A stretch of 64,000 bases of DNA from Myxococcales bacterium (GCA_016792845.1 JAEUKH010000018.1:74984-138983), one strand, 5' to 3'. Shown: positions 1,222 to 53,454, counted from the stretch's first letter. Notes: generated from the letters alone by a model not told the origin. Program-made: numbers and translations.

Positions 1222-2359
1222 GACCTTCGACAAGGCTCATCACCGGGCCCGCGAAGACGCGGCCCTTCTTGAAGCCCGCCGCGGCGAGGAGCGCTTCGAG
1301 CTCGGCGAGGCTCCGCTCGCGGCCCCCTTCGCAGGCCACGAGCATCTGGAGGTCTGACATCGGGCCGAAGCGATCGTGGGTGACCCGGGGCACCGGGGCT
1401 TCGCAGAGCAACACCCGTTGGCCTTCGGTCATCGCGGCGGCCACCCGCGAGAGGATGGTGACGCAGGCCGCGTCGCCCCAGTCGTGCAGCACGTTCTTCA
1501 AGAGGTAGAGCTCAGACCCGGGCGGCACGTGCTCGAAGAAGCTCGCCTCGGTGAGCGTGCAGCGCCCTCGTACGCCTCGCGCCGCCAGGAGCGGCTCGGC
1601 CGAGGCCAAGACCCCCGCGCCCTCGGCGAGGGTGCCCCGAAGGTGCGGGTGACGGAGCAGGATCTCAGACAACAAAATGCCCCGACCGCCGCCCACGTCG
1701 CACACGCTCGACACCTCGTCGAAGGGGTAGCGCCGAGCGACCCACGGGGCCGAGAGCGCGGTGAGGCCCATCATGCAGTGCGCGAAATTCTCTCGCTCGT
1801 CGGGGTGCGCGTCGAACCACTGCCAGACGCTCATGCCGTGGGCCGACGAGAATGCGTCGCGCCCGGTGCGCAGGCTCTCGTCGAAGTGTCGCCAGGCGCG
1901 CTGGTTGCTGTCGCTGCTCCAGTAGTTGACCCACTCGGCCATGCGCGAGACGCCGCCAGATTTGAGCACCCGCGAGTGGGCGTTGTGCGCGAAGCGGCCG
2001 TCGGGCCCGAGGGTGAAGATCCCCTCGCTGGCCAGGGCCCGCATCGCGCGGTAGAGCGCGTCGGCGTCGAGGCCGCAGGCCGCCGCGAGCGAGGCCGCCT
2101 CGGCGGGGGCCTCACCGAGCGCGTCAAAGACGCCAGCCCGCACGAGGGCGCCGAGCACGAAGGCGCTGCTCTGGGCCGCCGTCTTTTCGAGCACCATGAG
2201 CTCGGGCGGGGTGAGCCGGTCGAGCACCCGTTGGAGCCCCTCGCGCGCCCAAAGCACCGAGCGAACGAGCCAATCGGGAGGCGGCGGGGGGAGCCATTTC
2301 GGCGACAGTGACACACGCGAAGGCGGCGGCACGGGCCGTCGCAGAGAAGCCTGAACCAT
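1214..2359 (-). CDS. Class I SAM-dependent O-methyltransferase (family 2 OMT with N-terminal dimerisation domain)
   Basis: SAM-binding motif 'CDVGGGRG' followed by an OMT-like C-terminal region ('LLKNVLHDW..D..C..IL'). Protein-like composition versus the antisense frame. Confidence 0.8.
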   Translation of the reverse strand: MVQASLRRPVPPPSRVSLSPKWLPPPPPDWLVRSVLWAREGLQRVLDRLTPPELMVLEKTAAQSSAFVLGALVRAGVFDALGEAPAEAASLAAACGLDADALYRAMRALASEGIFTLGPDGRFAHNAHSRVLKSGGVSRMAEWVNYWSSDSNQRAWRHFDESLRTGRDAFSSAHGMSVWQWFDAHPDERENFAHCMMGLTALSAPWVARRYPFDEVSSVCDVGGGRGILLSEILLRHPHLRGTLAEGAGVLASAEPLLAARGVRGRCTLTEASFFEHVPPGSELYLLKNVLHDWGDAACVTILSRVAAAMTEGQRVLLCEAPVPRVTHDRFGPMSDLQMLVACEGGRERSLAELEALLAAAGFKKGRVFAGPVMSLVEGRR

Positions 2360-2372
2360 CAGGCCCGCGACT

Positions 2373-3098
2373 CTACACGAGCCCCGCCCGGGTCATGGCC
2401 TCTCTCCACGCGGGCCGCGGGTCGAGACCGAGGGCCTCGAAGCGCGGGAGGTAGTCTCGCTCGAAGCACCGCGCGAGCACCGCCTGGTAGGCGCCCGGCG
2501 CCATCAGCCCCCATCGGCGATCGTCGGCGTCGAGGGTGTCACGCCCGCGGGCCTCGCGCGGCGCGTAGCTCGCCCAGAGGCGCGAAAACCAGCCGGGGAG
2601 CTCGCGCTCGATCAGGCCCCGGGCCGACGCCGCGTACGGGGTCTCAAGGAGCCAGCCGAGGGCGCTCCACCCGAAATCGCGGTGCCGCACTTCATCACGC
2701 AAGATCCGGTCGAGGGCCCGGCGCGCGACCTCGACCTCGCAGCCCTCGCGGAGGCTTCGAAACAGCGGCACCGCCACGGTCTCGCCGAGGCAGAACACAT
2801 CGACCGTGAGGCGCGTCACGGCGGCCTCTAGGGGCTCACGGGCGGGCGCCTCGATGGCGAGGCTCTCACGCGCGAGGCGCGGGCCCGCGGCGCCCCCTGC
2901 GGCCGCGTAGACCTCCATGCTGAGGGTGGCGTGGTCGACCTCATCGGCGGCGATCTGGAGCCCCGCGAGGATGAGATCGGGCGAGGCCCCGATCTGCGTC
3001 AGCCACAGCGTCAAATGCTGTGTGATCGCGCTCGAACGGTACTCAGCCTCGACGCGCTGGAGCCACTCACGCTGCACCGCCGCACTCGCACCCTCCAT
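2373..3098 (-). CDS. Ferritin-like (di-iron carboxylate, DUF455/MiaE-like) domain protein. Start placed at internal ATG 3098 because the upstream part of the ORF is low-complexity overlap.
   Basis: Two ExxH motifs ('ADEVDHATL', 'DEVRHRDFGW') typical of the ferritin-like superfamily. The ORF upstream of Met114 is Arg/Pro/Thr-rich junk. A lipoprotein gene ends 8 nt upstream (operon). Confidence 0.6.
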   Translation of the reverse strand: MEGASAAVQREWLQRVEAEYRSSAITQHLTLWLTQIGASPDLILAGLQIAADEVDHATLSMEVYAAAGGAAGPRLARESLAIEAPAREPLEAAVTRLTVDVFCLGETVAVPLFRSLREGCEVEVARRALDRILRDEVRHRDFGWSALGWLLETPYAASARGLIERELPGWFSRLWASYAPREARGRDTLDADDRRWGLMAPGAYQAVLARCFERDYLPRFEALGLDPRPAWREAMTRAGLV

Positions 3099-5729: not shown

Positions 5730-8700
5730 TCACCCGTGGGTCGACGCGGCGCCGAGGAGGGCGTCGAGGTCTTCAGGGGTGAGCCCCGCGAGGGCCCCGC
5801 CGCCGTCGGCGATGACCGCGTCGGCGAGGCCGCGTTTGCGCTCTTTGAGCAGCATGATGCGGTCTTCGACGGTGCCGAGCGCGATGAGGCGGTACACCGT
5901 GACGGGGCGCTCCTGGCCCATGCGGTGGGCGCGGTCGGTGGCCTGGTCTTCGACGGCGGGGTTCCACCAAGGGTCGCAGTGGATGACGGTGTCTGCGGCG
6001 GTGAGGTTGAGCCCTGTGCCGCCGGCCTTGAGCGAGATCAAGAACAGCGGCGCGTCGCCCTGTTGAAAGCGCTCGACCACGGCGTCACGGTCGACGGTGC
6101 CGCCGTCGAGGTATTCGTACCGCAGACCGCGCGCGTCGAGGTCGCGCCGCCAGAGTGACAGCAGCTCGACAAACTGCGAGAACACCAGCACCCGCCGGCC
6201 CTCTTCGACCAAGGCGTCGACCAGTTCGAGAAAGGCCTCTCGCTTCGACGACGCCTCGGCCGGCGCCTTCGGGTCGACGAGCCTCGGGTCACACGCCATC
6301 TGCCGCAAGCGCAAGAGCGCCGTGAGCACCGCGAGGCCGCTGCGCCCGAGCCCCTGGGCGGCGATCTTCACCGCGAGCTCTTGTCGTAGCGCCTCGCTGA
6401 GCGTGTCGTAGCGCCGCTTCTGCTCGGCGTTGAGCTCGACCTCGCAGTTGATCTCTTCTTTCGGCGGCAGCTCGGTGAGCACCTCGCGCTTGCGCCGCCG
6501 CAAGAGAAAGGGCCGCACGAGGCTCCTGAGCCTGTGGGCCTCGACCCCGTGGGGTTCGAGCGCGATGGGGCGCTCGTACCGATTCGCGAAGGCCCTGGCC
6601 GAGCCCAGCATCCCCGGGTTCACGAGGTCGACGATGGCCCAGAGCTCGGCCAGTCGGTTCTCGACCGGCGTGCCTGTGAGGGCCAGGCGAAACACCGCGT
6701 CGAGCTCCCGCGCGGCCTGCGCGCTCTGGGCCCCGGCGTTCTTCACCTGTTGCGCCTCGTCGAAGACCACCGCGCGAAAGCGAAGCGTGCGCAGGGTGCC
6801 GAGGTCGCGCCGCAGGAGCGCGTAGGTGGTCACCACCAGGTCGACTCCCGCGATCACCTGCGCGTCGCGGGTGCGGTCGCTGCCGTGCAAGAGCAGCGTC
6901 TTGAGCGCGGGCGTGAAGCGTCGGGCCTCGCGCAGCCAGTTGCCCGCCACGCTCGTCGGCGCCACCACGAGGCTCACCTGCGAGCCCTCGTCTTCGCGCC
7001 ATCGCTCGAGCATGGCCAGCGTCGTGAGGGTCTTGCCGAGGCCCATGTCGTCGGCGAGCACGGCCCCCGCCCCGAGGGCGTGCACCCATTGCAGCCACGC
7101 AAGACCCTGCTGCTGATAGGGGCGCAGGGTTGCGCAGATGCACGACGGCATGCGGGGCGTCTCGGCGATCACTTCAGACTTCAGCCGCTCGCGGAGCGCA
7201 GCGACCTCGGCGTCGACCTCGGTGGCGAGGCCGAGCTCGCTCCACACGTTGAGGCGCCCGAGCTGGTGCGGCGACAGCTTCGCCGTGAGGGTGCCCGCGA
7301 CGGCCTTGAGCTTGCCAAACTCTTCGGTCTCTTCGAGGAGCGAGAGCACCTGCTGGCTGATCTCGGCCACCGAGCCGTCATCGAGGGCGACCCAGTTGCG
7401 CTTGTTGCGGAGCGCCGTCTTGAGCGCCTCGACGTCGGCCTGCACGACCCCGGCCTCGAAGGTGAGCGAGGTGTCGAGGAGCCCCTCGACCAAGGCCACC
7501 CGCGCCGTCGCGCGCACCGCAGGGCGCACCGTGACGCGCTCGAGCCCCGCGGCGAACTCGACCGTGACGCGCCCCTCGGTTTGGGCGCGGTATCGCGGCA
7601 GGAGGGTCGTCCAAAACAGGGCGGCCTGGGCGTCGCGGGCGGGGTATCCGCGGTGCTCGTCGCTCCACGCGAGCCCGAGGGCCTCGACCGTCGCCCGCGC
7701 TTCGCGTTCGAGCTCGACATCACGACGGAGCTCGTCGTCGGCGCTGAGCTTCTCGTCGGGCACGAGGGTCAGGGTGCGGGTCGCGTACACCGCGTCGAGG
7801 CGCAGCACCAGGTCGAGCGGGCGCCCCTCGATGCGCAGCACGAAGCTCGGCGTCTCGCGCGCCGCGAGGCCCACGCTCTCGGGCGGCGGGAGCTTCGCCT
7901 TGCCCCGGAGCAGCTTCGACAACGCCTGCCAGGTGCGCCCCGCCTCGCCTTGCGGAATGGGCACCACCGGGCGTCGATGCACCGCCTCGGCGAAGCTCAT
8001 GTCGACCTCGCGATGCACCGCCGCGGCCACCCCCAGCGCGGGCACCACGACGTAGGGCAACGCGCCCGCGAAGAACAGCGCCTCGTGGGCCGGAACATCG
8101 AAGCCCCCGTCGCCCTCGACGTACCAACGCCCGAGCATCGCGTCGAGCTCAACGCTGGCCTCGTGACGGCCCCCAGGGCGCACCGGGCCGAGCACCCCAG
8201 GCGTCTCAGGGCGCGCCTCGGGCACTCGCTGATCGGGCGCGAGGAGACGCGACGACACGCGCTCGCGCTGCACCCGCACCCGCGCCGCGCCGGGGGCGAA
8301 TCGCAGCCCCCGATCGAGGCCTTCGAGTTGCGTCTCGCGGCCTGACTTTTCGAGCAGGTCGAGCAAGAGCCCGGTCACCCTCGCCTCGGCCAACATGCCC
8401 TTCTTGCCGTCGGCGCGCGGGCGCCCGAGGGCGCAGAGCATCCGGTCGTCGGACGAGAGCCCCGAGACCTCGTCGCTCGCGACGATGCGATTGCGCGCGT
8501 GACGGAAGCGAAAATGGAGCACGGGCTCGTCGGCCGCGGGGCGCGTCGCGAGGGCGTAATCGCGGCCGCCGTCGGTGAACGAGAGCTCGAGCGCCACGGG
8601 GCCTTCGATGCGCCGCGCGGCCGACGACGGCGCCCACACCGACGCGCTCTCGATCACCTGAAGCTCACCCAGGAAGGCCGCGCGGCGCGCCTTGAGGTCG

Positions 8701-9101
8701 AGCCATACGGGGTCGGGCACTTCGCCCGCGGCGAGGGCCGCGCGCAGCGGCTCTGAGGCGCCGAGGTCGAGCAAGAGCGCGCACACATGGGCGCAAGGCA
8801 GCGGCGCACCGCACGAGCACGCGCACGCCGGCCCGAGCCCCGCGCCGCCGACGGGCTGAAAGCCGAAGCTCGTCGCAGCGCGCAAGGTCTCGCTCCGCCA
8901 CGCGTACTGCGGCCCTAAACGGCGCGACGCGAGCGGCCCGAGCTCGACCGTGGCGCGGAGCTGAAGCGCTGACTCCAACCGCGGCGGCGCGGGGTAACGC
9001 CAGGTGCGCTCGAAGAGCGTCAGCGCCTCGCCGAGCCCGACGAGTTGCACCACACGCGGGGTGCTCAGCCCCAACCACGGAGAAGATTCGTCAGGCATCA
9101 C
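5730..9101 (-). CDS. SNF2-family helicase with N-terminal SWIM zinc finger
   Basis: SWIM finger 'CACSCGAPLPCAHVCALL'. SNF2 motifs 'LADDMGLGKT' and 'DEAQQVKN'. C-terminal helicase motif 'GGTGLNLTAADTVIHCDPWWNPAVEDQATDRAHRMGQ'. Confidence 0.85.
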   Translation of the reverse strand: MMPDESSPWLGLSTPRVVQLVGLGEALTLFERTWRYPAPPRLESALQLRATVELGPLASRRLGPQYAWRSETLRAATSFGFQPVGGAGLGPACACSCGAPLPCAHVCALLLDLGASEPLRAALAAGEVPDPVWLDLKARRAAFLGELQVIESASVWAPSSAARRIEGPVALELSFTDGGRDYALATRPAADEPVLHFRFRHARNRIVASDEVSGLSSDDRMLCALGRPRADGKKGMLAEARVTGLLLDLLEKSGRETQLEGLDRGLRFAPGAARVRVQRERVSSRLLAPDQRVPEARPETPGVLGPVRPGGRHEASVELDAMLGRWYVEGDGGFDVPAHEALFFAGALPYVVVPALGVAAAVHREVDMSFAEAVHRRPVVPIPQGEAGRTWQALSKLLRGKAKLPPPESVGLAARETPSFVLRIEGRPLDLVLRLDAVYATRTLTLVPDEKLSADDELRRDVELEREARATVEALGLAWSDEHRGYPARDAQAALFWTTLLPRYRAQTEGRVTVEFAAGLERVTVRPAVRATARVALVEGLLDTSLTFEAGVVQADVEALKTALRNKRNWVALDDGSVAEISQQVLSLLEETEEFGKLKAVAGTLTAKLSPHQLGRLNVWSELGLATEVDAEVAALRERLKSEVIAETPRMPSCICATLRPYQQQGLAWLQWVHALGAGAVLADDMGLGKTLTTLAMLERWREDEGSQVSLVVAPTSVAGNWLREARRFTPALKTLLLHGSDRTRDAQVIAGVDLVVTTYALLRRDLGTLRTLRFRAVVFDEAQQVKNAGAQSAQAARELDAVFRLALTGTPVENRLAELWAIVDLVNPGMLGSARAFANRYERPIALEPHGVEAHRLRSLVRPFLLRRRKREVLTELPPKEEINCEVELNAEQKRRYDTLSEALRQELAVKIAAQGLGRSGLAVLTALLRLRQMACDPRLVDPKAPAEASSKREAFLELVDALVEEGRRVLVFSQFVELLSLWRRDLDARGLRYEYLDGGTVDRDAVVERFQQGDAPLFLISLKAGGTGLNLTAADTVIHCDPWWNPAVEDQATDRAHRMGQERPVTVYRLIALGTVEDRIMLLKERKRGLADAVIADGGGALAGLTPEDLDALLGAASTHG

Positions 9102-9136
9102 GCGAAGGCCCGCGAGTGTATGCCCAACACCCGCCG

Positions 9137-22345: not shown

Positions 22346-23281
22346 ATGCCCACCCCCACCGACCTCGCGGCCGACATTGTTCGCCTGAAAAAAGAACGCA
22401 ACGCGGTGCTCCTCGCGCACTACTACGTCGACGGCGAGGTGCAAGACGTCGCTGATTTTGTAGGCGATTCGTTGCAGCTCTCGCAGGCCGCGCAGAAGAC
22501 CCAGGCCGACGTGATCGTCTTCGCGGGGGTTCACTTCATGGCCGAGACGGCCAAGATCTTGAACCCGAGCCGCAAGGTGGTCTTGCCCGACCTCGACGCG
22601 GGCTGCTCGCTCGCCGAGGGCTGCCCGGGCGACAAATTCGCGGCCTTCACCGCGCGCCACCCCGACCACTACGTGCTCTCGTACATCAACTGCTCGGCCG
22701 AGGTGAAGGCGCTCTCAGACTGCATCGTCACCAGCTCGAACGCCGAGAAGATCGTGCGAAGTGTGCCCGAAGGGCGGCCCATCATCTTCGCCCCTGACAA
22801 GAACCTCGGGGCCTACCTCGCCCGCAAGACGGGCCGCGACATGCTGATGTGGCGCGGCAGCTGCATCGTCCACGAGACCTTCTCAGAGCGGAAGATCATC
22901 GCCCTCCAGACCCGGCACCCCGACGCCGAGCTCATCGCGCACCCCGAGTGCGAGCCCGCGATCCTGGCGCACGCCCGCTTCATCGGCTCGACCAGCGCGC
23001 TCTTGAAATACACCCAGACCGCCGCGGCCAGGCGCTTCATCGTGGCCACCGAGACGGGCATCCTTCACCAGATGAAGAAATCGTCGCCCGACAAAGAGTT
23101 CATCGCCGCGCCCCCCGACGCGAACTGCGCCTGCAACGACTGCCCGTTCATGAAGAAGAACAGCCTCGAAGCCGTGCACCGCGCGCTCGAAACGCTCGAG
23201 CCCGAGCTCACCCTCGACGAGGGGCTCCGCGTGAAGGCCCTTCGCCCCATCGAGCGGATGCTGGAGCTCTCAGCGAGCTGA
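22346..23281 (+). CDS. nadA: Quinolinate synthase NadA
   Basis: '[42 protein letters not shown]' and '[11 protein letters not shown]' Fe-S cysteines. ATG at 22346 follows a low-complexity 5' extension. Confidence 0.9.
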
Positions 23282-23848
23282 GCCGCGCACGCCCCGGGCG
23301 CTGGCCTCGACCACGGCCCGCTCGGGGTTCGCGATGACCTCGCGCCCCACCAGGCGCCCCTCGCCCGCGGCCTCTGCCCCCGCCTCGACCGCCGCCTCGA
23401 CGTCAGAGAGCGCGCCGGTCAGCACGACGTAGCCCTTGCCCCCGATGCCCCGCGCGAGGTGCATGTCGACCAGGCTCACGGCGGCACACTTCAGCGCCGC
23501 ATCGGCCGCGCGGATGGTGGCCGCGAGGGTCTCAAGCTCGAGCACGCCGACCGAGCCCTCGGGGCGCGAGCGCACGAGGCCCTCGCAGAGCGCCCGCATC
23601 ACCGCCTCGTGGGCGTACGCGAGGTAGGTGTGGTCGATGCGCGAGGCGTCGCTCACGGTGATGGCCGCGTCGAGCGCTTCTTCGATCTCGGCCTCGCCGC
23701 CGGCGAAGGCGATCCAGTAGCGGCCCGGGGTGATCGGCTCGGCGTAGAGCACCGTGACCGGGCTGCGCTTGTCGAGCGCATCGAGCACGAGGTACCCCCT
23801 CGCAATCGACGCAATCTCTACAATCGCCAAGGCCGGCCCGTCGCTCAC
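23270..23848 (-). CDS. Bacterial microcompartment shell protein, tandem BMC-domain type (BMC-T)
   Basis: Two PF00936-like halves: '[26 protein letters not shown]...[21 protein letters not shown]' and '[28 protein letters not shown]...[28 protein letters not shown]'. Compare PduA 'GDVGAVKAATDAGAAAA'. Confidence 0.75.
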
Positions 23849-23928
23849 AGAAACTCTCTCGGCGGTACCACGCCCCGCCCGACGGGCACAAGCGCGCGTG
23901 TGCCCGTGCTACACCTTCGGCGCCTCTC

Positions 23929-46924: not shown

Positions 46925-47105
46925 GATGTGAGAACCTCGAAATCGTGGCACCCGCCCAGGGCAGGTCTGCGCCCCCGCGAAGGGTCGGCGAAGGTACCTC
47001 ACACCCGCGAAACCGCGCAAGACAAGCCATTCGCGAAAAGGGCGCGGGGCCCGCGCTTTCTCTTTGACGGTGACGCGCGCCCTGTGGTTGTATCCGCATC
47101 CCGCT

Positions 47106-47186
47106 GCGAGGATGGCGGAATGGCAGACGCACTAGCTTGAGGTGCTAGCGGGTAACTCCGTGGGGGTTCAAGTCCCCCTCCTCGCA
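47106..47186 (+). tRNA. tRNA-Leu (anticodon GAG), copy 1
   Basis: GCGAGGATGGCGGAATGGCAGACGCACTAGCTTGAGGTGCTAGCGGGTAACTCCGTGGGGGTTCAAGTCCCCCTCCTCGCA. 7-bp acceptor stem. Anticodon loop TTGAGGT. Long variable arm. T-arm GGGGGTTCAAGTCCCCC. Close to E. coli tRNA-Leu. Confidence 0.85.
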
Positions 47187-47190
47187 CTCT

Positions 47191-47224
47191 TGAGAGCCTT
47201 GAATCAGCGATGGTTCAAGGCTCT
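47191..47224 (+). terminator. Perfect 12-bp-stem hairpin (GAGAGCCTTGAA..TTCAAGGCTCTC) after tRNA-Leu copy 1
   Basis: Direct read of the inverted repeat. Confidence 0.6.
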
Positions 47225-47338
47225 CGGCTTTTGGGCCCCTCCGATGGGGTGTCTGCCCGCGTCTGCCTCGGGCTTCGTCGCGTCGCTGTCGATTGTGCTT
47301 GACGGTCTGTGTGCGAGGCTTCAGTCTCCGCATCCCGC

Positions 47339-47419
47339 TGCGAGGATGGCGGAATGGCAGACGCACTAGCTTGAGGTGCTAGCGGGTAACTCCGTGGGGG
47401 TTCAAGTCCCCCTCCTCGC
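47339..47419 (+). tRNA. tRNA-Leu (anticodon GAG), copy 2, identical to copy 1
   Basis: Same 81-nt sequence. Part of a ~233-bp tandem duplication that includes the upstream leader 'tccgcatcccgctgcgagg' and the downstream hairpin. Confidence 0.85.
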
Positions 47420-47425
47420 ACTCTT

Positions 47426-47459
47426 GAGAGCCTTGAATCAGCGATGGTTCAAGGCTCTC
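47426..47459 (+). terminator. Second copy of the 12-bp-stem hairpin after tRNA-Leu copy 2
   Basis: Direct read. Confidence 0.6.
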
Positions 47460-47488
47460 AGCCTTTGGGCCAACGTACGGAGGCATCG

Positions 47489-48343
47489 GTGGTGTCGCAG
47501 GTCTGGTGGTTGGTCGATGCCGCGGGCGAGCGTGCGGGGCGTCTGCACGCGGTGCCCGTGTCGGCGCAGCATGTCGGCTTGATGCTTCGGCCCGAACCCG
47601 AGGCCCGCCGCGCGCCGACCCTCGACGCGACCCGAGAGGCTTTGGCGCGCATGCACGCGTGGGCGCGCGAGGGCGGCCGGGCGGCGCTTGAGGCGCGGGT
47701 GCAGACCGAGCGCGAGGGGCAGCGCTTCGCGGCCTTCGCAGAGGTCGCAGACGAGGCGCTCCGCGGGGCTGACTTTGTCGAAGACGGCGGCCGGTGGGAG
47801 TTCTCGGCCTCGCTCGAAGACCCGCGCTTTCGCGAGACCATCGCGCGCTTTGACCGCGGGCCCCTGCGCTGGCAGGTGCTCACCCTCGGCCACGACGACG
47901 CCTTCGCGCGGGCGGCGGGGCTCCTCACGGCGACCGCTGCGGGCGACCCGGGCAGCGACGACGACGACGACGCGGTCGCGTTCTTGGCGGCGCTCCGCGA
48001 CGCGCCGGGCGAGGCCCTCGAGGTCATCGTGGGCTGCCTCGACGCGCAAGACCGCACGCTCGCCGTGGTGCAGGTCGCGGGGCCCTCGGCGACGGGTCGG
48101 GTGGTCTATCTCGGCGTCACCCCTTCGTGTCGGGGGCTCAAGCTCGGGCGACAAGCCTGGGCCCACGCCCTCGCGCGGCTCGGGGCCCTCGGGGCGCGGC
48201 ACTACGTCGGCGGCACACACCGCGACAATCGCCCCATGCTCTCGCTCTTCGGCGCCTTCGGTCTTGAGGCCAACCAGGCGCTCCGGCGCTATCGCCTTCG
48301 AACGAGCGCGGGCGCATTGCCAGCGGGCCGCCGTGGCCCCTAA
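47489..48343 (+). CDS. Putative GNAT-family acetyltransferase domain protein (start uncertain)
   Basis: Protein-like frame versus a clearly junk antisense frame. C-terminal 'VVYLGVTPSCRGLKLGRQAWAHALARL' resembles the GNAT acetyl-CoA-binding motif. The 5' end of the track ORF overlaps the tRNA terminator, so the true start is downstream. Confidence 0.5.
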   Translation: MVSQVWWLVDAAGERAGRLHAVPVSAQHVGLMLRPEPEARRAPTLDATREALARMHAWAREGGRAALEARVQTEREGQRFAAFAEVADEALRGADFVEDGGRWEFSASLEDPRFRETIARFDRGPLRWQVLTLGHDDAFARAAGLLTATAAGDPGSDDDDDAVAFLAALRDAPGEALEVIVGCLDAQDRTLAVVQVAGPSATGRVVYLGVTPSCRGLKLGRQAWAHALARLGALGARHYVGGTHRDNRPMLSLFGAFGLEANQALRRYRLRTSAGALPAGRRGP

Positions 48344-48352
48344 GGTTGCGGG

Positions 48353-49135
48353 GTGCTGAGCGTCGCGTGGGTCGAGGCCTTGTCGCCCTGGCGCCTCTTC
48401 GGCGGGGTGCTCGGGCTTTGGGTGTTGGTCTCTGCGCTGGCCTCGGCGCTGGGCTTTCTGGCCGAACGGGCGCTGCGCACGAAGACCCTCTTCGCGGTGC
48501 CGCGCTTCGCCGGGCAGTACCGCTTCGAGCTCTTGGGGAGCGCCGTCTTCGTGCTCACCGCCTCGGCCGCGGTGACCCTCGCGCTCTCGCGGCGCTGGGT
48601 GCATTTTTCGGCCTCGACGCCGCGCGACCACCTCGTGACCTTCGCGTCGATGACCCTGGGGTTTCAGGTCTTTTACTGGTTCGCCCACCGGGCCATGCAC
48701 CACCGCCGGCTGGTGTTCTTGCACCGCTGGCATCACCGCTCGCAGGTCACGACGCCCTTGACCGGGCAGTCGACCAGCCTGGGCGAGGCGCTGGTCTGGC
48801 AGCTCGGCTACGTGGGCCTCGCGGCGCTGTTGGCGCGGGCGTTACCGTTCACCTTTGAGGGCTGGGTGGGCTACCTGGTCTTCAACGTGTTCGGCAACGT
48901 CTTCGGGCACAGCAACATCGAGCCGACGGCCCCCGTCGCGGCCACCCGGTGGGCGACCTGGTTCGCCAACGCGTTCATCTACCACGCGCTCCATCACGCC
49001 CGGTGGACGGGGCACTACAGCTTTCAATCAGCCCTGATGGATCGCCTCATGGGCACCGAGTGGCCCGACTGGCCCGCGCTGTACGCCCAGATCGTCGCCG
49101 GGCGCCCGCTCACGTCGCTCAAGGCCCGCGGCTGA
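48353..49135 (+). CDS. Fatty-acid hydroxylase superfamily / sterol desaturase-family membrane enzyme
   Basis: Three His boxes 'HRAMHH', 'HRWHHRS', 'HALHH' in a polytopic membrane protein. Confidence 0.75.
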   Translation: MLSVAWVEALSPWRLFGGVLGLWVLVSALASALGFLAERALRTKTLFAVPRFAGQYRFELLGSAVFVLTASAAVTLALSRRWVHFSASTPRDHLVTFASMTLGFQVFYWFAHRAMHHRRLVFLHRWHHRSQVTTPLTGQSTSLGEALVWQLGYVGLAALLARALPFTFEGWVGYLVFNVFGNVFGHSNIEPTAPVAATRWATWFANAFIYHALHHARWTGHYSFQSALMDRLMGTEWPDWPALYAQIVAGRPLTSLKARG

Positions 49136-49222
49136 ATAGCTCGCGCACGATTTTCGTCGAAGCTTTTCACCCGCTGGGCGACCATCGGGATTCACTGAAT
49201 GAGCTTGAGAGAGGGGCGATCC

Positions 49223-49570
49223 ATGGCGAAGTCTGCGAAGCGTGAATGGGCTGCGTGTTTTGGGGTGTTGGCGCTCTTGGTCGGCGTCGGCACGGTCACC
49301 ACCTTCGCGGCGCCCCGAAGGGCCCAAGCGCAGCAGCAGCCCGCGCGCACCCCCGAGCAGATCTTCAACCGCGCCTGCGGCCGGTGTCACCCGGGCGGGG
49401 GCGAAGACATCGGCCCCGACATTCACAACGCCAACAAGACCGTCGAGCAGATGACCACCATCATTCGCAACGGCACCAAGCGCATGCGGCCCATCACCCC
49501 GGCGCGCCTGAGCGACCCCGACCTCGAAGCCATGCTGCCCTACCTCCGCAGCCTGCACGCCGTGCACTGA
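49223..49570 (+). CDS. Small secreted c-type cytochrome
   Basis: Signal peptide 'AACFGVLALLVGVGTVTTFAAP'. Single heme-binding motif 'CGRCH'. Confidence 0.65.
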   Translation: MAKSAKREWAACFGVLALLVGVGTVTTFAAPRRAQAQQQPARTPEQIFNRACGRCHPGGGEDIGPDIHNANKTVEQMTTIIRNGTKRMRPITPARLSDPDLEAMLPYLRSLHAVH

Positions 49571-49623
49571 GAGGCGCGCGCCGCGGGTTGCCTTCGCGGC
49601 ACACCTGTGGCCCGATCGCCGGA

Positions 49624-50232
49624 ATGGTGCCCCAACCCCTCGCCTTCGCCCTCGGCGCCCTCTCTTGGACGGCGGCCGAGTACGCGCTCCACCGTTTTGT
49701 CGGGCACGGGCCGAAGCTGCGCGTCCCCGAGGGGCTCGCGGCGCGGCTGAGCCCGCAGGGGCTCCTCGCGGGGTTTAACGCCGAGCACCTCGCTCACCAC
49801 GCCAACCCGCAGTATTTTGCGCCCACCGCGCACAAGCTCGCCGCCGCCGGGGTGGTGATCACGGGCCTCTACGCCCTCGGCCGCCCGCTCACCTCGCCCG
49901 CCACGGCGCGCGCCTTCGCTCTCGGCTTCGGGGTGTTCTTCGGGGGCTACGAGCTGCTCCACCGTCGCATCCACACGCACCCGCCGCAGACGGCCTACGG
50001 GCGCTGGCGACGGCAGCATCACCTTCAGCATCACCATCGCTCGCCCCGCGACAACCACGGGGTCACCCACAACCTCTTCGATGTGCTCGGCGGCACCGCG
50101 GTCGCCCTCGGGCGCGTGAAGGTGCCCCGTCGCCAGGCGCCCGGGTGGATGCTCACCCCCGACGGCGAGCTCAAGCCCGAGTACAGCGCCGCGTACGAGC
50201 TCGTCGGCACCCGCCCCGAGGCGCAGGGGTGA
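49624..50232 (+). CDS. Fatty-acid hydroxylase superfamily protein (CrtZ / sterol-desaturase-like, ~200 aa)
   Basis: His-rich motifs 'HRFVGH', 'EHLAHH', 'HRRIHTH', 'HHLQHHH' in a membrane protein. ATG at 49624. Its stop overlaps the start of the next gene (TGATG). Confidence 0.6.
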   Translation: MVPQPLAFALGALSWTAAEYALHRFVGHGPKLRVPEGLAARLSPQGLLAGFNAEHLAHHANPQYFAPTAHKLAAAGVVITGLYALGRPLTSPATARAFALGFGVFFGGYELLHRRIHTHPPQTAYGRWRRQHHLQHHHRSPRDNHGVTHNLFDVLGGTAVALGRVKVPRRQAPGWMLTPDGELKPEYSAAYELVGTRPEAQG

Positions 50233-51347
50233 TGTTTCACAGACGTTTCATCGCGTTTCATCTGGCGCTGAGCCTCGCCGGCTGCGCGGAGCCCGAGCCT
50301 GCCGCCGTCGACGCCGCGGGGGCGCTCGGCGACGCGGCCCTCGACGACCTCGGGGCCCCCGACGACGACGCGGCCTCGCGCTGCCCGGCGCGCCCCGAGG
50401 CTCCCGCGGCGTGGCGCCCGGGGCCGTCGCGCGGGCCTCAAGATGACAGCCTTCGGGTGAACCACCTCCAGGTCGAGGGCACCCACAACAGCTACCACCT
50501 GCGGCCCCCGAGGGTGATCGCCGAGTGGGACTACGCCATGGAGCCCCTCGACGTTCAGCTCGGTCAGCAAGGGGTCAGGGCCCTCGAGCTCGACCTCCGG
50601 TGGGACGCGACCTGCGAGCGTTTCAGAGTGTTTCACCTCCCGGGCCTCGACGCCCGCTCGACCTGCGACGCCTTCGTCGAGTGCCTCGCCGTCGTGCGCG
50701 ACTGGTCACACGCGCACCCCGGCCACCATGTGCTCTTCGTGCAGCTCGAACCCAAAGACAGCTGGGACGCTGAGACCGCCGAGCGGCGCCTCGTCGCCAT
50801 GGAGCGCGAGATCGTCTCGGTGTTTCACCGCGACCAGATCGTGACGCCGGGTGAGGTCCAGGGCGCGGCGCCGAGCCTCCGCGCGGCTGTCACGACCCGC
50901 GGCTGGCCGACCCTCGGCGAGACCCGCGGCCGGGTGCTCTTCTTCATCGACCGCAGCGACAGCCTCCGAGAGGTGTACACCCACGGCGGGCGCGACCTCG
51001 CCGGGCGCCTCGCCTTCATCGACGCCGAACACGACGCGCCCTACGCCGCCGTGCGGGTGCTGAACAACCCCGCCCACGCGGCCCTCGCGGCGGCCCTCGA
51101 CGCCAACTTCCTCGTGCGCGTCTTCAGCTGGACCGCCGGCGCCGCGCCCCTCACCGACCAGGAGCGCGACCTCGCCTTCGCCTCCGGCGCTCACATCGTC
51201 AGCACCGATTACCCCGGCGCCATGGCCCGCGATGGCCGCCCGGGCATCGCCGTGCCCGACGGCGCCCCCTCACGCTGCAACCCCGTCACCGCCCCGCGCG
51301 GATGCGCCGCAGCCGCCCTCGAAGCGCTCGGCGATGCGGGGCGATGA
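50232..51347 (+). CDS. PLC-like phosphodiesterase (Ca-dependent PI-PLC X-domain-like) lipoprotein
   Basis: Lipoprotein signal 'MFHRRFIAFHLALSLAGC'. 'LQVEGTHNSYHL' matches the PI-PLC-like TIM-barrel catalytic His motif. The gene is bracketed by GTTTCA x3 (5') and TGAAAC x3 (3') arrays. Confidence 0.65.
   Translation: MFHRRFIAFHLALSLAGCAEPEPAAVDAAGALGDAALDDLGAPDDDAASRCPARPEAPAAWRPGPSRGPQDDSLRVNHLQVEGTHNSYHLRPPRVIAEWDYAMEPLDVQLGQQGVRALELDLRWDATCERFRVFHLPGLDARSTCDAFVECLAVVRDWSHAHPGHHVLFVQLEPKDSWDAETAERRLVAMEREIVSVFHRDQIVTPGEVQGAAPSLRAAVTTRGWPTLGETRGRVLFFIDRSDSLREVYTHGGRDLAGRLAFIDAEHDAPYAAVRVLNNPAHAALAAALDANFLVRVFSWTAGAAPLTDQERDLAFASGAHIVSTDYPGAMARDGRPGIAVPDGAPSRCNPVTAPRGCAAAALEALGDAGR
50234..50260. 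repeat. GTTTCA x3 direct repeats (spacing 11 and 10 bp) at the 5' end of the PLC-like gene
   Basis: Direct read: GTTTCAcagacGTTTCAtcgcGTTTCA. AT-rich island inside the signal-peptide codons. Confidence 0.7.
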
Positions 51348-51372
51348 AACAAATCTGAAACACAGATGAAAC
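51345..51372. repeat. TGAAAC x3 direct repeats (spacing 11 and 11 bp) immediately after the PLC-like gene stop. This is the inverted counterpart of the 5' array.
   Basis: Direct read: TGAAACaaatcTGAAACacagaTGAAAC. Confidence 0.7.
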
Positions 51373-51475
51373 ATCATGCGAGATCGCGCCCGACGGCGAC
51401 ATGCGCGCGCTGTCGCACGAATACGGAGGTAGAAGACGATCTCCGGCACGCCACGCGCATCGCGGCGGTTGACCC

Positions 51476-52636
51476 ATGAGACACCGGCTCGCATCGCTTG
51501 GCTTCGCGGTCTTCATCTGCGCCGCGGCGTCGGCCCGCGCGCAGGGCACCGTCGAGCCCATCGGCACCCTCGAAGGTGACTATCGCCGCCATTCGCATGA
51601 ATTTGAAGGGCGCGACGGCTTCGTCATCCGCCGCGCGCGGGCGGGGCTGCGGTTTCGGCCGAGCGAGCGCTTCGACCTCAGGCTCGTGGCCGAGCTCGCG
51701 CGGGCGACGCCGGGCATCCTCGACGCGTTCGGCGCCGTACGGCTCATCGAGGGCTTTGAGCTCAACGTCGGGTACTTTCGTAACCCCAACATGCTCACCG
51801 GGCGCGACGAGCGCGCATGGATGACCCCCGTGCCCGAGCGCGCGATGATCACCGCGGCGCTCTGGCCGAACCGAGACCTGGGCTTCGAGGTGCATTGGTT
51901 TCCGCGGCGATGGCCTGTCGAGGTGTGGGCGCGGGCGGGCAACGGCGTGTCGAACCCGCTCGGGCCCGAAGACAGCACTCCGACGGCGGTGCTGCGGGTC
52001 GACGGGGCCTTCGGGCGGCTCCACGCCTGGGGTTCGCGCGGGCAGCGCTTGGGCTTGAGGGTGGGCGCCGCGGTAATGCGCGGCGATGCGCCCGAGCGCC
52101 CCGGGCCCGCGGGCGTCACCGAGATGGGGTTTCAGTTCTTCAGGCCCGTGACCATCGTGGGCGCGCGGCTCACCATGACGGGCCACCTGCGCGCCGTGGC
52201 GGGGCCGGTTCAGCTCACCGTCGAGGGCGGGTGGGAGCGCGACGCCCGCGCCCGCGACACCGACGACAACCCGCTCACGCCGCGCGACCCCGTCGGCGCG
52301 ATCGACACCTACGGCGCCATGGGCGAGCTCTCGTGGATGCTCACGGGCCACCACCGCGTGTCGGGCGAGTGGCCGTGGAGCCCGCGTCAAGACCGCCCCT
52401 ATGGGGCCATCGAGCTCGCCGCGCGGTTCGAACGGAGCTGGTTCGCGCAGGGCGCCGACGACGTGCCCGGCGGGGGCGTCGCCGCGGCGGCGGGGGCCCT
52501 CCGCTGGTGGCCCAATCGCTGGTCAGGGCTCGCGCTGGCGGTGTACCTCCATCGCTTCGACCGAGCCCCCCTCGAAGCCCCCGCGCAGACCTCGGGGTGG
52601 AATGCCGTGCTCAGGGCGGTCGTTCGGGTGCCATGA
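51476..52636 (+). CDS. Putative outer-membrane beta-barrel protein (phosphate-selective porin O/P-like)
   Basis: Signal peptide 'LGFAVFICAAASARAQG'. Alternating amphipathic beta-strand-like composition. C-terminal aromatic residues. The assignment is tentative. Confidence 0.5.
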   Translation: MRHRLASLGFAVFICAAASARAQGTVEPIGTLEGDYRRHSHEFEGRDGFVIRRARAGLRFRPSERFDLRLVAELARATPGILDAFGAVRLIEGFELNVGYFRNPNMLTGRDERAWMTPVPERAMITAALWPNRDLGFEVHWFPRRWPVEVWARAGNGVSNPLGPEDSTPTAVLRVDGAFGRLHAWGSRGQRLGLRVGAAVMRGDAPERPGPAGVTEMGFQFFRPVTIVGARLTMTGHLRAVAGPVQLTVEGGWERDARARDTDDNPLTPRDPVGAIDTYGAMGELSWMLTGHHRVSGEWPWSPRQDRPYGAIELAARFERSWFAQGADDVPGGGVAAAAGALRWWPNRWSGLALAVYLHRFDRAPLEAPAQTSGWNAVLRAVVRVP

Positions 52637-53454
52637 AGACCCTCCGGGCCCTCGCCGCGCTGCTCTTGGGCCTTTGGTTCGTGTCGGGGCTCCTCTTGTT
52701 CGTGTTTCAGCGACGTTTCATCTTCGCCTCGCCCGGCCCTACGGTGGCGCCGGTGGCCCCCGGGGCGCGCCGCCTCGACCTCGCGACGGGGGCCGGCTGG
52801 TCGGTCACGGCGCTGCACTGGCCGGCGCCGCGGGGGCACCGCACGGTGGTTCATTTTCACGGCAACGGCGAGCAGCTCGCGTGGCAGCGCGAGATGGCCG
52901 AGGCCTGGCGCGCCGCCGGCTACGGCGTGGTCGCGATGGAGTACCCGGGCTACGGCGTCATGGCCGACGTGGCCCCCTCGGAGGGGGCGCTGCTCAGAGC
53001 GGCTGAAACGCTGTTGCAACATCTTGAAACATCACCCGAGACCCCGAGCGAGCGCTTGATCTTGCAGGGCTTCTCGCTCGGCACCGGGGTGGCGATCGAG
53101 ATGGCGCGGCGCGGTCACGGCGGGGCCTTGGTGCTGCTCGCGCCCTACACCTCGATGCGCGAGATGGCGGCCCAACGGATGCCCCTTTGGCCCACCGGCT
53201 TGATGCTCCTCGACCGCTTCGAGAGCGCGTCGCGAGCGCCCGGGGTGCGGCAGCCCGTGCTCTTGCTCCACGGCGCCGAAGACACCCTGATCTTGCCCGA
53301 AATGAGCGAGCGCCTCGCGCGGCGCTTTCGCCGGGCCGAGCGGGCGGTGATCGACGGCGCGGGGCACAACGACCTCTTCGCCCGGGGCACCCCTGAGATC
53401 GTGGCGCGGTTGGCGCGCTTCGCCCCGCCCGTGATCGACGCCGCGGCGCGATGA
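52633..53454 (+). CDS. Alpha/beta-hydrolase (BEM46-like, N-terminal membrane anchor). ATGA overlap with the porin-like gene.
   Basis: 'LLLFVFQRRFIFASP' anchor motif. Nucleophile elbow 'GFSLGTG'. 'VVHFHGNGE' box. Confidence 0.8.
   Translation: MKTLRALAALLLGLWFVSGLLLFVFQRRFIFASPGPTVAPVAPGARRLDLATGAGWSVTALHWPAPRGHRTVVHFHGNGEQLAWQREMAEAWRAAGYGVVAMEYPGYGVMADVAPSEGALLRAAETLLQHLETSPETPSERLILQGFSLGTGVAIEMARRGHGGALVLLAPYTSMREMAAQRMPLWPTGLMLLDRFESASRAPGVRQPVLLLHGAEDTLILPEMSERLARRFRRAERAVIDGAGHNDLFARGTPEIVARLARFAPPVIDAAAR
52703..52720. repeat. GTTTCAgcGACGTTTCATC, a second GTTTCA pair, 17/19 identical to the segment at 50234-50252. It lies inside the hydrolase gene.
   Basis: Direct read. Confidence 0.6.
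53004..53030. repeat. TGAAAC / TGCAAC / TGAAAC array (spacing 11-12 bp), the inverted partner of the 52703 repeat. It lies inside the hydrolase gene.
   Basis: Direct read: TGAAACgctgtTGCAACatctTGAAAC. Confidence 0.6.

Follow-up and report, generated by a model that had tools for sequence, protein, structure and literature searches.

Operators of OmpR/PhoB-type response regulators are the described systems closest to the locus reported here. Upstream of Escherichia coli ompF, a DNA loop between the distal site F4 and the proximal sites may bring about repression. In Bacillus subtilis, sites for PhoP are also found inside the coding regions of phoA and pstS, and in Pseudomonas plcN and oprP are members of the Pho regulon. 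The PHO box is built of 11-nucleotide (nt) direct repeat units, each with 7 conserved and 4 variable positions, which are bound head-to-tail and vary in number (PMC4415409). We analysed a 64,000-nt stretch of DNA from a Myxococcales bacterium (GCA_016792845.1, JAEUKH010000018.1:74984-138983; hereafter the window, with positions counted from its first nucleotide). Within 2.8 kb of it we found five arrays of the motif RYGTTTCA, repeated one DNA turn apart and lying mostly over the coding sequences of a string of three genes, for a phospholipase C (PLC) lipoprotein, an outer-membrane porin and an alpha/beta hydrolase. We infer, with about as much confidence as doubt, that the arrays are head-to-tail binding sites for one winged-helix response regulator of the OmpR/PhoB type.

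Array A (50227-50262, + strand) consists of three units, GGGTGATGTTTCA-cagac-GTTTCA-tcgc-GTTTCA-tc, with hexamers at 50234, 50245 and 50255. It covers the stop codon of the upstream fatty-acid hydroxylase gene, the PLC start codon (ATG, 50232-50234), which its first GTTTCA overlaps, and the first 10 PLC codons. Array B (51345-51376, - strand) also has three units and reads on the + strand TGAAAC-aaatc-TGAAAC-acaga-TGAAACATCA (hexamers 51345, 51356 and 51367). Its first TGAAAC holds the PLC stop codon TGA, its end lies 104 base pairs (bp) 5' of the porin ATG, and it is the sole array mainly in non-coding DNA. Array C (50620-50635, + strand) is a pair of units within the PLC gene, GTTTCA-gagt-GTTTCA, in the codons for RFRVFH (hexamers 50620 and 50630). 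The 10-mer of its second unit recurs in the same gene as a single site, GTGTTTCACC (50820-50829, + strand; hexamer 50822). Array D (52702-52722, + strand), TGTTTCA-gcgac-GTTTCATC, has its two hexamers at 52704 and 52715, 71-88 nt into the hydrolase gene, and is identical to the first two units of array A at 18 of 20 nt. Array E (53004-53037, - strand) lies further into the hydrolase gene and reads on the + strand TGAAAC-gctgt-TGCAAC-atct-TGAAACATCACCC, with units at 53004, 53014 (the TGCAAC variant) and 53025; read in reverse complement, its final 13 nt match those that open array A (GGGTGATGTTTCA) without a mismatch. The porin gene contains a lone GTTTCA (52129-52134, + strand), the sole site in the region with G at position -1.

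Within each array all units have the same orientation, head-to-tail, and their spacings are 11 and 10 bp in A, 10 in C, 11 and 11 in B, 11 in D, and 10 and 11 in E. Arrays A, C and D and the single site at 50822 point one way, and B and E the opposite way, so that two convergent sets are formed, one around the PLC gene (A and C facing B) and one inside the hydrolase gene (D facing E). The hexamer is part of an extended motif, RYGTTTCA, with R at -2, Y at -1 and often TC next, which is present at 13 of the 14 sites in the region; the 11 copies of GTTTCA elsewhere in the window have no such flanking preference. All three triple arrays (A, B and E) are headed by TGATGTTTCA, and the longest inverted match between A and B is the 10 bp of TGATGTTTCA/TGAAACATCA. 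Arrays are found at or near all three gene junctions: A sits on the stop-start overlap of the hydroxylase and PLC genes, B runs from the PLC stop codon into the PLC-porin spacer, and D lies 71 nt past the porin/hydrolase overlap, while C and E are each about 370-390 nt into their own gene. An earlier sequence-only reading of this DNA had pointed to two inverted pairs of hexamer arrays, and every hexamer that it listed for them is present where it placed it. The 19-nt stretch shared by the two 5' arrays is indeed identical at 17 of 19 positions (GTTTCACAGACGTTTCATC versus GTTTCAGCGACGTTTCATC), and the peptides FHRRFIAF and FQRRFIFA are encoded at these arrays, as it said. New here are the phased pair at 50620/50630 and the single sites at 50822 and 52129, all on the + strand.

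The abundance and the phasing of the hexamer are both far from what base composition would give. GTTTCA or TGAAAC occurs 25 times in the window, compared with 10.0 +/- 3.3 in shuffled sequences, and 14 of these 25 fall in 50234-53030, which is 4.5% of the window (binomial p ~3e-13, for a region chosen post hoc). Pairs in the same orientation at 10-11 bp, that is with 4-6 nt spacers, number 6 versus 0.01 expected, and all 6 are inside the region. When all 4096 hexamers were scanned for same-orientation pairs at 10-11 bp, GTTTCA exceeded expectation 614-fold, and the runner-up 2.4-fold. Arrays of three units with at most 2 mismatches were found three times in the window (A, B and E) and never in 30 shuffles. 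The sequence of the arrays recurs in four independent assemblies from different sequencing runs, three of them 100% identical and one 99.4%, and is therefore not an assembly artefact. The feature is statistically extreme, and it is under constraint at the nucleotide level.

The sequence-only reading had allowed that part of the similarity between the arrays may be coding constraint. As a full account, together with coincidence, this would make the hexamers a mere reflection of Phe-His/Gln and Arg-Phe-Ile codons. The synonymous codons of all three proteins were resampled according to the codon usage of 25 further genes in the window. This recoding gave 1.17 hexamers on average versus 11 observed, and 0.04 phased pairs versus 4 observed, and neither observed value was reached in any of 3000 samples. 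Rare codons gather at the arrays: array A coincides with the rarest-codon stretch of 8 codons in the PLC gene, and in the hydrolase gene array E lies over the two rarest-codon stretches and array D over the fourth rarest. The codons of array D include the minority codons TTT, CGA and CGT, and those of array C include CGT (8.6% of Arg codons) and AGA (1.1%). The motif positions also coincide with residues that depart from the family consensus. The signal peptide of the PLC protein, MFHRRFIAFH, encoded at array A, is unlike those of all 15 homologues. At the site at 50822 the protein reads SVFHRD, against SVFPR in 13 of 15 homologues, and it is the His codon that provides the CA of the motif. 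In the hydrolase, VFQRRFIF at array D replaces the LLQRR(L/V/I)VF of homologues, and AET..LETS at array E replaces their AEA..LEGP (15 homologues in each case). Some positions do fit the proteins. The peptide RFRVFH is conserved across the PLC family, so that array C is partly permitted by the protein, and Q26-R27 of the hydrolase is conserved as well. The lone porin site at 52129 is probably a coding coincidence outside the system, since porin homologues have GTTTCA at about the same offset from the start (about +653 in the window, +699 and +672 in the homologues L130 and L131, a comparison of offsets and not of homologous codons). The recoding, the rare codons and the residues of homologues contradict coding constraint as the source of the similarity. 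The coding sequence accommodates the arrays by means of rare codons and unusual residues, and this, together with the excess over recoding, indicates that the pattern was selected, or at least generated, at the nucleotide level.

What could have selected it? The arrays have the direct repeats of an OmpR/PhoB-family operator, with a core of 6-7 bp and a period of 10-11 bp. We suggest that one sequence-specific protein, as dimers or oligomers arranged head-to-tail, would line a single face of the helix, and that its recognition unit would be RYGTTTCA (TGAAACRY in reverse) with a period of 10-11 bp. The position and polarity of array B would suit an operator, since it is mainly intergenic, ends before the porin ATG and reads TGAAAC toward it, and we propose that it serves a porin promoter in this way. 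The four arrays within the PLC and hydrolase genes might then be auxiliary sites that raise the local occupancy, or that act by looping or as a roadblock, for which the intragenic PhoP sites of B. subtilis and the F4 site of ompF would be precedents. By bridging arrays (A with B or C, and D with E), the protein could tune or shut down the PLC-porin-hydrolase string; looping or cooperativity may link the arrays. It is tempting to speculate on a link to phosphate or envelope stress, because the gene content (a phospholipase C, an OprO/P-like porin, a hydrolase and upstream fatty-acid hydroxylases) would fit, by analogy, the Pho and envelope-stress regulons described elsewhere.

Several observations weigh against a response regulator of this type. 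Among the called genes of the window (a few short gaps are unannotated) we found none for a Trans_reg_C or OmpR-type regulator; an RR-GAF-HD protein, a TetR and a YebC are the sole regulators seen there. Such a regulator is often, though not necessarily, encoded next to its operator, and its gene may lie elsewhere. A simple promoter-operator model, moreover, requires neither the intragenic position of four of the five arrays nor the opposite orientation of two of them. A scan for a sigma-70 promoter 3' of array B was empty. A sigma-54 promoter match at 51444, 3' of array B, has 3 mismatches, and with 64 such matches in the window versus 93 expected we rejected it as chance. OmpR is a protein of a distant phylum, and the similarity to its sites that is described below could be accidental. 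Homologues of the PLC, porin and hydrolase proteins with 55-67% identity (contigs L001-L005 and L130-L136) have neither the arrays nor the same gene order, so that there is no phylogenetic footprint, although this does not disprove conservation. The scan of other genomes, given next, belongs on the same side: array neighbours in other phyla are functionally unrelated, and the hexamer alone thus defines no regulon. Further searches were negative. Sigma-70 promoters and terminators gave nothing above background, no pst/phoU/phoBR or pstS/phoA/phoU-type genes are present in the window, no ompR/envZ-like genes were seen in it, and a literature search returned neither a defined motif for GTTTCA/TGAAAC direct repeats nor a Pho box of Myxococcus or other Myxococcota. 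The strain that is 99.4% identical (L007) has 80 single-nucleotide differences in 13.4 kb, none of them in the hexamers versus about 0.5 expected, and no substitution in the 128-bp PLC-porin intergenic region; in both cases the divergence is too small to inform.

The triple-array pattern was scanned in GTDB genomes and in Joint Genome Institute (JGI) metagenomes, with at least 120 matches in each. Many of the matches listed are perfect tandem repeats, and the MAG of the window is not among them. Among those listed, the variable-spacer arrays of high-G+C genomes are almost all intergenic and often lie 0-175 bp 5' of a gene in the TGAAAC direction; the neighbouring genes include purU-like, desaturase, FtsH, LacI and MerR genes and two sigma-54 activators. 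Since those arrays are nearly all intergenic, the window is unusual mainly for having five of them in 2.8 kb of largely coding DNA. Three individual cases were noted. In Polyangium sp. y55x31 (L055, 5866-5892), an intergenic array of three RYGTTTCA units, GCGTTTCAcgaATGTTTCAcgATGTTTCA, lies just past a DsbD_2-family gene. In its TGAAAC direction it faces, at a distance of about 130 bp, a gene for a pyridine-nucleotide-disulphide oxidoreductase, which resembles the layout of array B. On two unrelated high-G+C contigs, phased TGAAAC arrays of 3-4 units end 0-6 bp from the start codon of genes for sigma-54 enhancer-binding proteins (L075, array 1988-2027 and gene 2034-3053; L241, array 9088-9115 and gene 7492-9087); one product is a receiver-less AAA+/HTH_8 protein, from a Myxococcales metagenome-assembled genome (MAG), and the other is a PrpR-type activator. 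In the closest hydrolase homologue (L134, 436-448; 60% identity, on a contig of 66% G+C), GATGATGTTTCAC stands at the position homologous to the second unit of array D, and includes the 10-mer TGATGTTTCA, in a single copy only.

A protein of another class is the main rival to the response regulator, and we consider it the less likely of the two. An architectural or bridging protein, a centromere-binding ribbon-helix-helix protein of the ParR type or a looping repressor could organise the DNA locally or silence this gene string instead of activating a promoter. The presence of five arrays in 2.8 kb, mostly intragenic and convergent (A, C and D versus B and E), would suit such a protein, as would the perfect 13-bp inverted repeat formed by the outermost units of A and E, the 10-bp one formed by A and B, and the lack of a regulator gene among the called genes and of a recognisable promoter. 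There is also a precedent for the phasing: on parC of plasmid R1, ParR-type proteins bind iterons phased at 10-11 bp in two blocks, with cooperative coating by a small DNA-binding protein. Against this, no partition, plasmid or nucleoid-protein gene was seen nearby, and array B lies and points as a classical operator before the porin gene would. The G+C content of the region is ordinary (the window as a whole is at about 0.70-0.75), so that it is not an AT-rich silencing target. No full parS sites are present in the window. The specific idea of ParB-parS, raised by TGTTTCAC being half of a ParB site, was rejected, because the palindrome TGTTTCACGTGAAACA has no match at 3 or fewer mismatches in the whole window and without a parS-like palindrome the idea fails.

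There is also a bolder version of the operator proposal, which we consider rather doubtful. In this myxobacterial lineage, the operator arrays would lie within the reading frames of their targets, selection for binding would have recoded the codons and even the amino acids of three proteins, and the convergent arrays (A with B or C, D with E) would be looped together, enclosing or silencing single genes. Such control would bracket genes from within, and would not be that of a promoter-proximal operator.

The remaining readings, at the level of RNA, of a mobile element, of a promoter or of coincidence, are unlikely. In the first of these, long-range pairing of GUUUCA (A, C and D) with UGAAAC (B and E) in the mRNA, or recognition by an RNA-binding protein, would control the translation or stability of the PLC and hydrolase messages. 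All arrays do lie on one putative transcript, with A overlapping the PLC start codon; UGAUGUUUCA in A and UGAAACAUCA in B and E are 10-nt complements, and the minimum-energy fold of 52690-53045 pairs the first unit of D with the last unit of E. However, the complementarity is confined to the hexamer cores and does not extend to the spacers, the folding energies are ordinary (z = -0.67 across D-E, -1.89 in the intergenic region), and the only Rfam matches are two tRNAs. A period of 10-11 nt is moreover a property of B-DNA and not of RNA recognition, and we find this account improbable.

We attach very little probability to the hexamers being -35 elements of extracytoplasmic function (ECF) sigma factors. 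In Bacillus, TGAAAC and TGCAAC serve sigma-W and sigma-M as such elements; the hexamers match ECF-type -35 boxes exactly, and array E has both variants. Three boxes phased at 10-11 bp are nevertheless not a promoter architecture, no -10 element of the CGTC/CGTA type lies 16-17 nt 3' of any unit of array B (the nearest is a CGAC at 18 nt), and arrays A, C and D would point antisense.

A mobile cassette that brought the PLC gene, with the arrays as remnants of terminal inverted repeats at multi-site transposase-binding ends, has a similarly slight chance. It was one of two interpretations offered by the sequence-only reading, the other being a binding array, and here the two part ways: the anatomy matches the architecture of OmpR/PhoB-type operators (a core of 6-8 bp, head-to-tail, at 10-11 bp, in sets of 2-3), and the cassette has largely been refuted. 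Arrays A and B do bracket the PLC reading frame exactly, inverted and with three units each, the PLC homologues of relatives are not syntenic, and two tRNA-Leu genes lie 5' of the gene string. Yet the D/E pair is within an intact hydrolase gene that is colinear with 15 homologues, the matches between arrays are confined to the motif cores, and no called gene of the window was seen to carry a transposase or integrase domain. At 50234 and 51372, where a target-site duplication had been suggested as a check, the adjoining bases are not duplicated, and the G+C content does not deviate. Because the start and stop codons of the PLC gene are inside the repeats, the ends of a cassette would have to be coding. 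The weakest account, coincidence with coding constraint, is refuted by the recoding, the rare codons, the residue departures, the location of array B mainly outside coding sequence, the RY flank common to the sites in the region and the hexamer scan, in which no other hexamer is phased like GTTTCA, and we leave it almost no chance.

The host is an uncultured myxobacterium. At 100% identity, the PLC protein matches the NCBI entry 'MAG: hypothetical protein JNK72_06120 [Myxococcales bacterium]'; Polyangiales, Sandaracinaceae and Labilithrix are the sources of its homologues. The array-bearing genes belong to a same-strand string that lies 3' of two tRNA-Leu genes and begins with genes for a GNAT acyltransferase (47489-48343), a first fatty-acid hydroxylase (48353-49135), a c-type cytochrome (49223-49570) and a second fatty-acid hydroxylase (49624-50232). 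The start of the last is probably at 49624 (202 amino acids), as in the calls on Logan contigs; a long open reading frame at 49246-50232 is in another frame than the cytochrome c gene, overlaps that gene and uses rare codons up to about 49620 (region 49199-49623). The three genes that follow are all on the + strand. The PLC gene (50232-51347, 371 amino acids) encodes a PI-PLC-C1 family lipoprotein (Pfam PF16670, E = 3e-61) with an LAGC lipobox read in the sequence. The porin gene (51476-52636, 386 amino acids, with a signal peptide) is of the OprO/OprP type; its match to Pfam Porin_O_P scores 21.1 bits, barely above the cut-off of 20.9, and JGI names a 57% homologue as phosphate-selective porin OprO and OprP. 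The start of the hydrolase gene (52633-53454, 273 amino acids; Pfam Hydrolase_4, E = 7e-17) overlaps the porin stop codon (ATGA). NCBIfam gave no specific names for the seven genes of the string.

In relatives, porin homologues (57% and 37% identity; L130, 1252-7637, and L133, 4827-8173) adjoin regulators with HTH and PBP_like (PF12727) domains, and the one in L130 also adjoins an ABC transporter of the molybdate/tungstate type. The gene arrangement of the window is thus lineage-specific, and this porin family may serve the uptake of oxyanions more broadly than that of phosphate. The two tRNA-Leu(GAG) genes (47106-47187 and 47340-47421, + strand) are identical, and each is followed by an identical hairpin, GAGAGCCTTGAATCAGCGATGGTTCAAGGCTCTC; a unit of about 135 bp is duplicated 234 bp apart (47093-47461), directly 5' of the array-bearing gene string, with no integrase nearby. 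Elsewhere in the window, a gene at 23270-23908 (- strand) encodes a protein with a BMC domain (bacterial microcompartment shell), which we judge unusual for a myxobacterium.

If the arrays are regulator sites, RYGTTTCA at 10-11 bp provides a ready recognition motif for an uncharacterised regulon, in a group, the uncultured Polyangia-like myxobacteria, for which transcription-factor sites are almost unknown. The gene content hints that this could be control of the envelope or of phosphate scavenging. On the same condition, the arrays would be a clear case in which selection on DNA prevails over codon usage and the choice of amino acids across three neighbouring genes. This bears on the amount of regulatory information carried by bacterial coding sequence, and is a warning for analyses based on codons or on the ratio of nonsynonymous to synonymous substitutions (dN/dS).

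Among known systems, the PHO boxes of PhoB and PhoP in E. coli, Streptomyces and Bacillus resemble the arrays in their direct units of about 11 nt and their varying number of units; their cores are CTGTCAT (E. coli), GTTCACC (Streptomyces) and TTAACA-like (Bacillus), compared with GTTTCA in the window. Members of Pho regulons elsewhere also resemble the genes of the window, with a phospholipase C and an OprO/P-like porin. A second resemblance is to the OmpR sites of ompC and ompF. The upstream region of E. coli ompC reads ...TTTACATTTTGAAACATCTATAGCGATAAATGAAACATCTT..., in which two copies of TGAAACATCT, separated by 21 bp, are directed toward the ATG from 140-170 bp upstream of it. The C1 site used in studies of OmpR binding includes the first copy (PMC2586830). 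In the window, TGAAACATCA, which ends arrays A, B and E, is one base off the TGAAACATCT half-site. Like array B, the OmpR sites (C1-C3 and F1-F4) have half-sites about 10 bp apart, arranged head-to-tail 5' of a porin gene and reading toward it. Every unit of the window has the same hexamer, whereas E. coli OmpR sites alternate TTTACA-like and GAAACA-like half-sites, and the window arrays further differ in being mostly coding, in that two of them are inverted, and in their myxobacterial host. The resemblance illustrates how such a site would work and is not a demonstration of an OmpR orthologue. The iteron centromeres of ParR share with the window direct repeats about 11 bp apart, but the window arrays are chromosomal and intragenic, have only 2-3 units and are not accompanied by partition genes. 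The transposon ends of Mu, Tn7 and Tn402 have several transposase-binding repeats per end, inverted between the ends; their sites are of about 20 bp, compared with units of 6-8 bp at 10-11 bp spacing here. The feature would belong to a familiar class, that of phased direct-repeat operators, and what is uncommon about it is the extent to which it is embedded in coding sequence.

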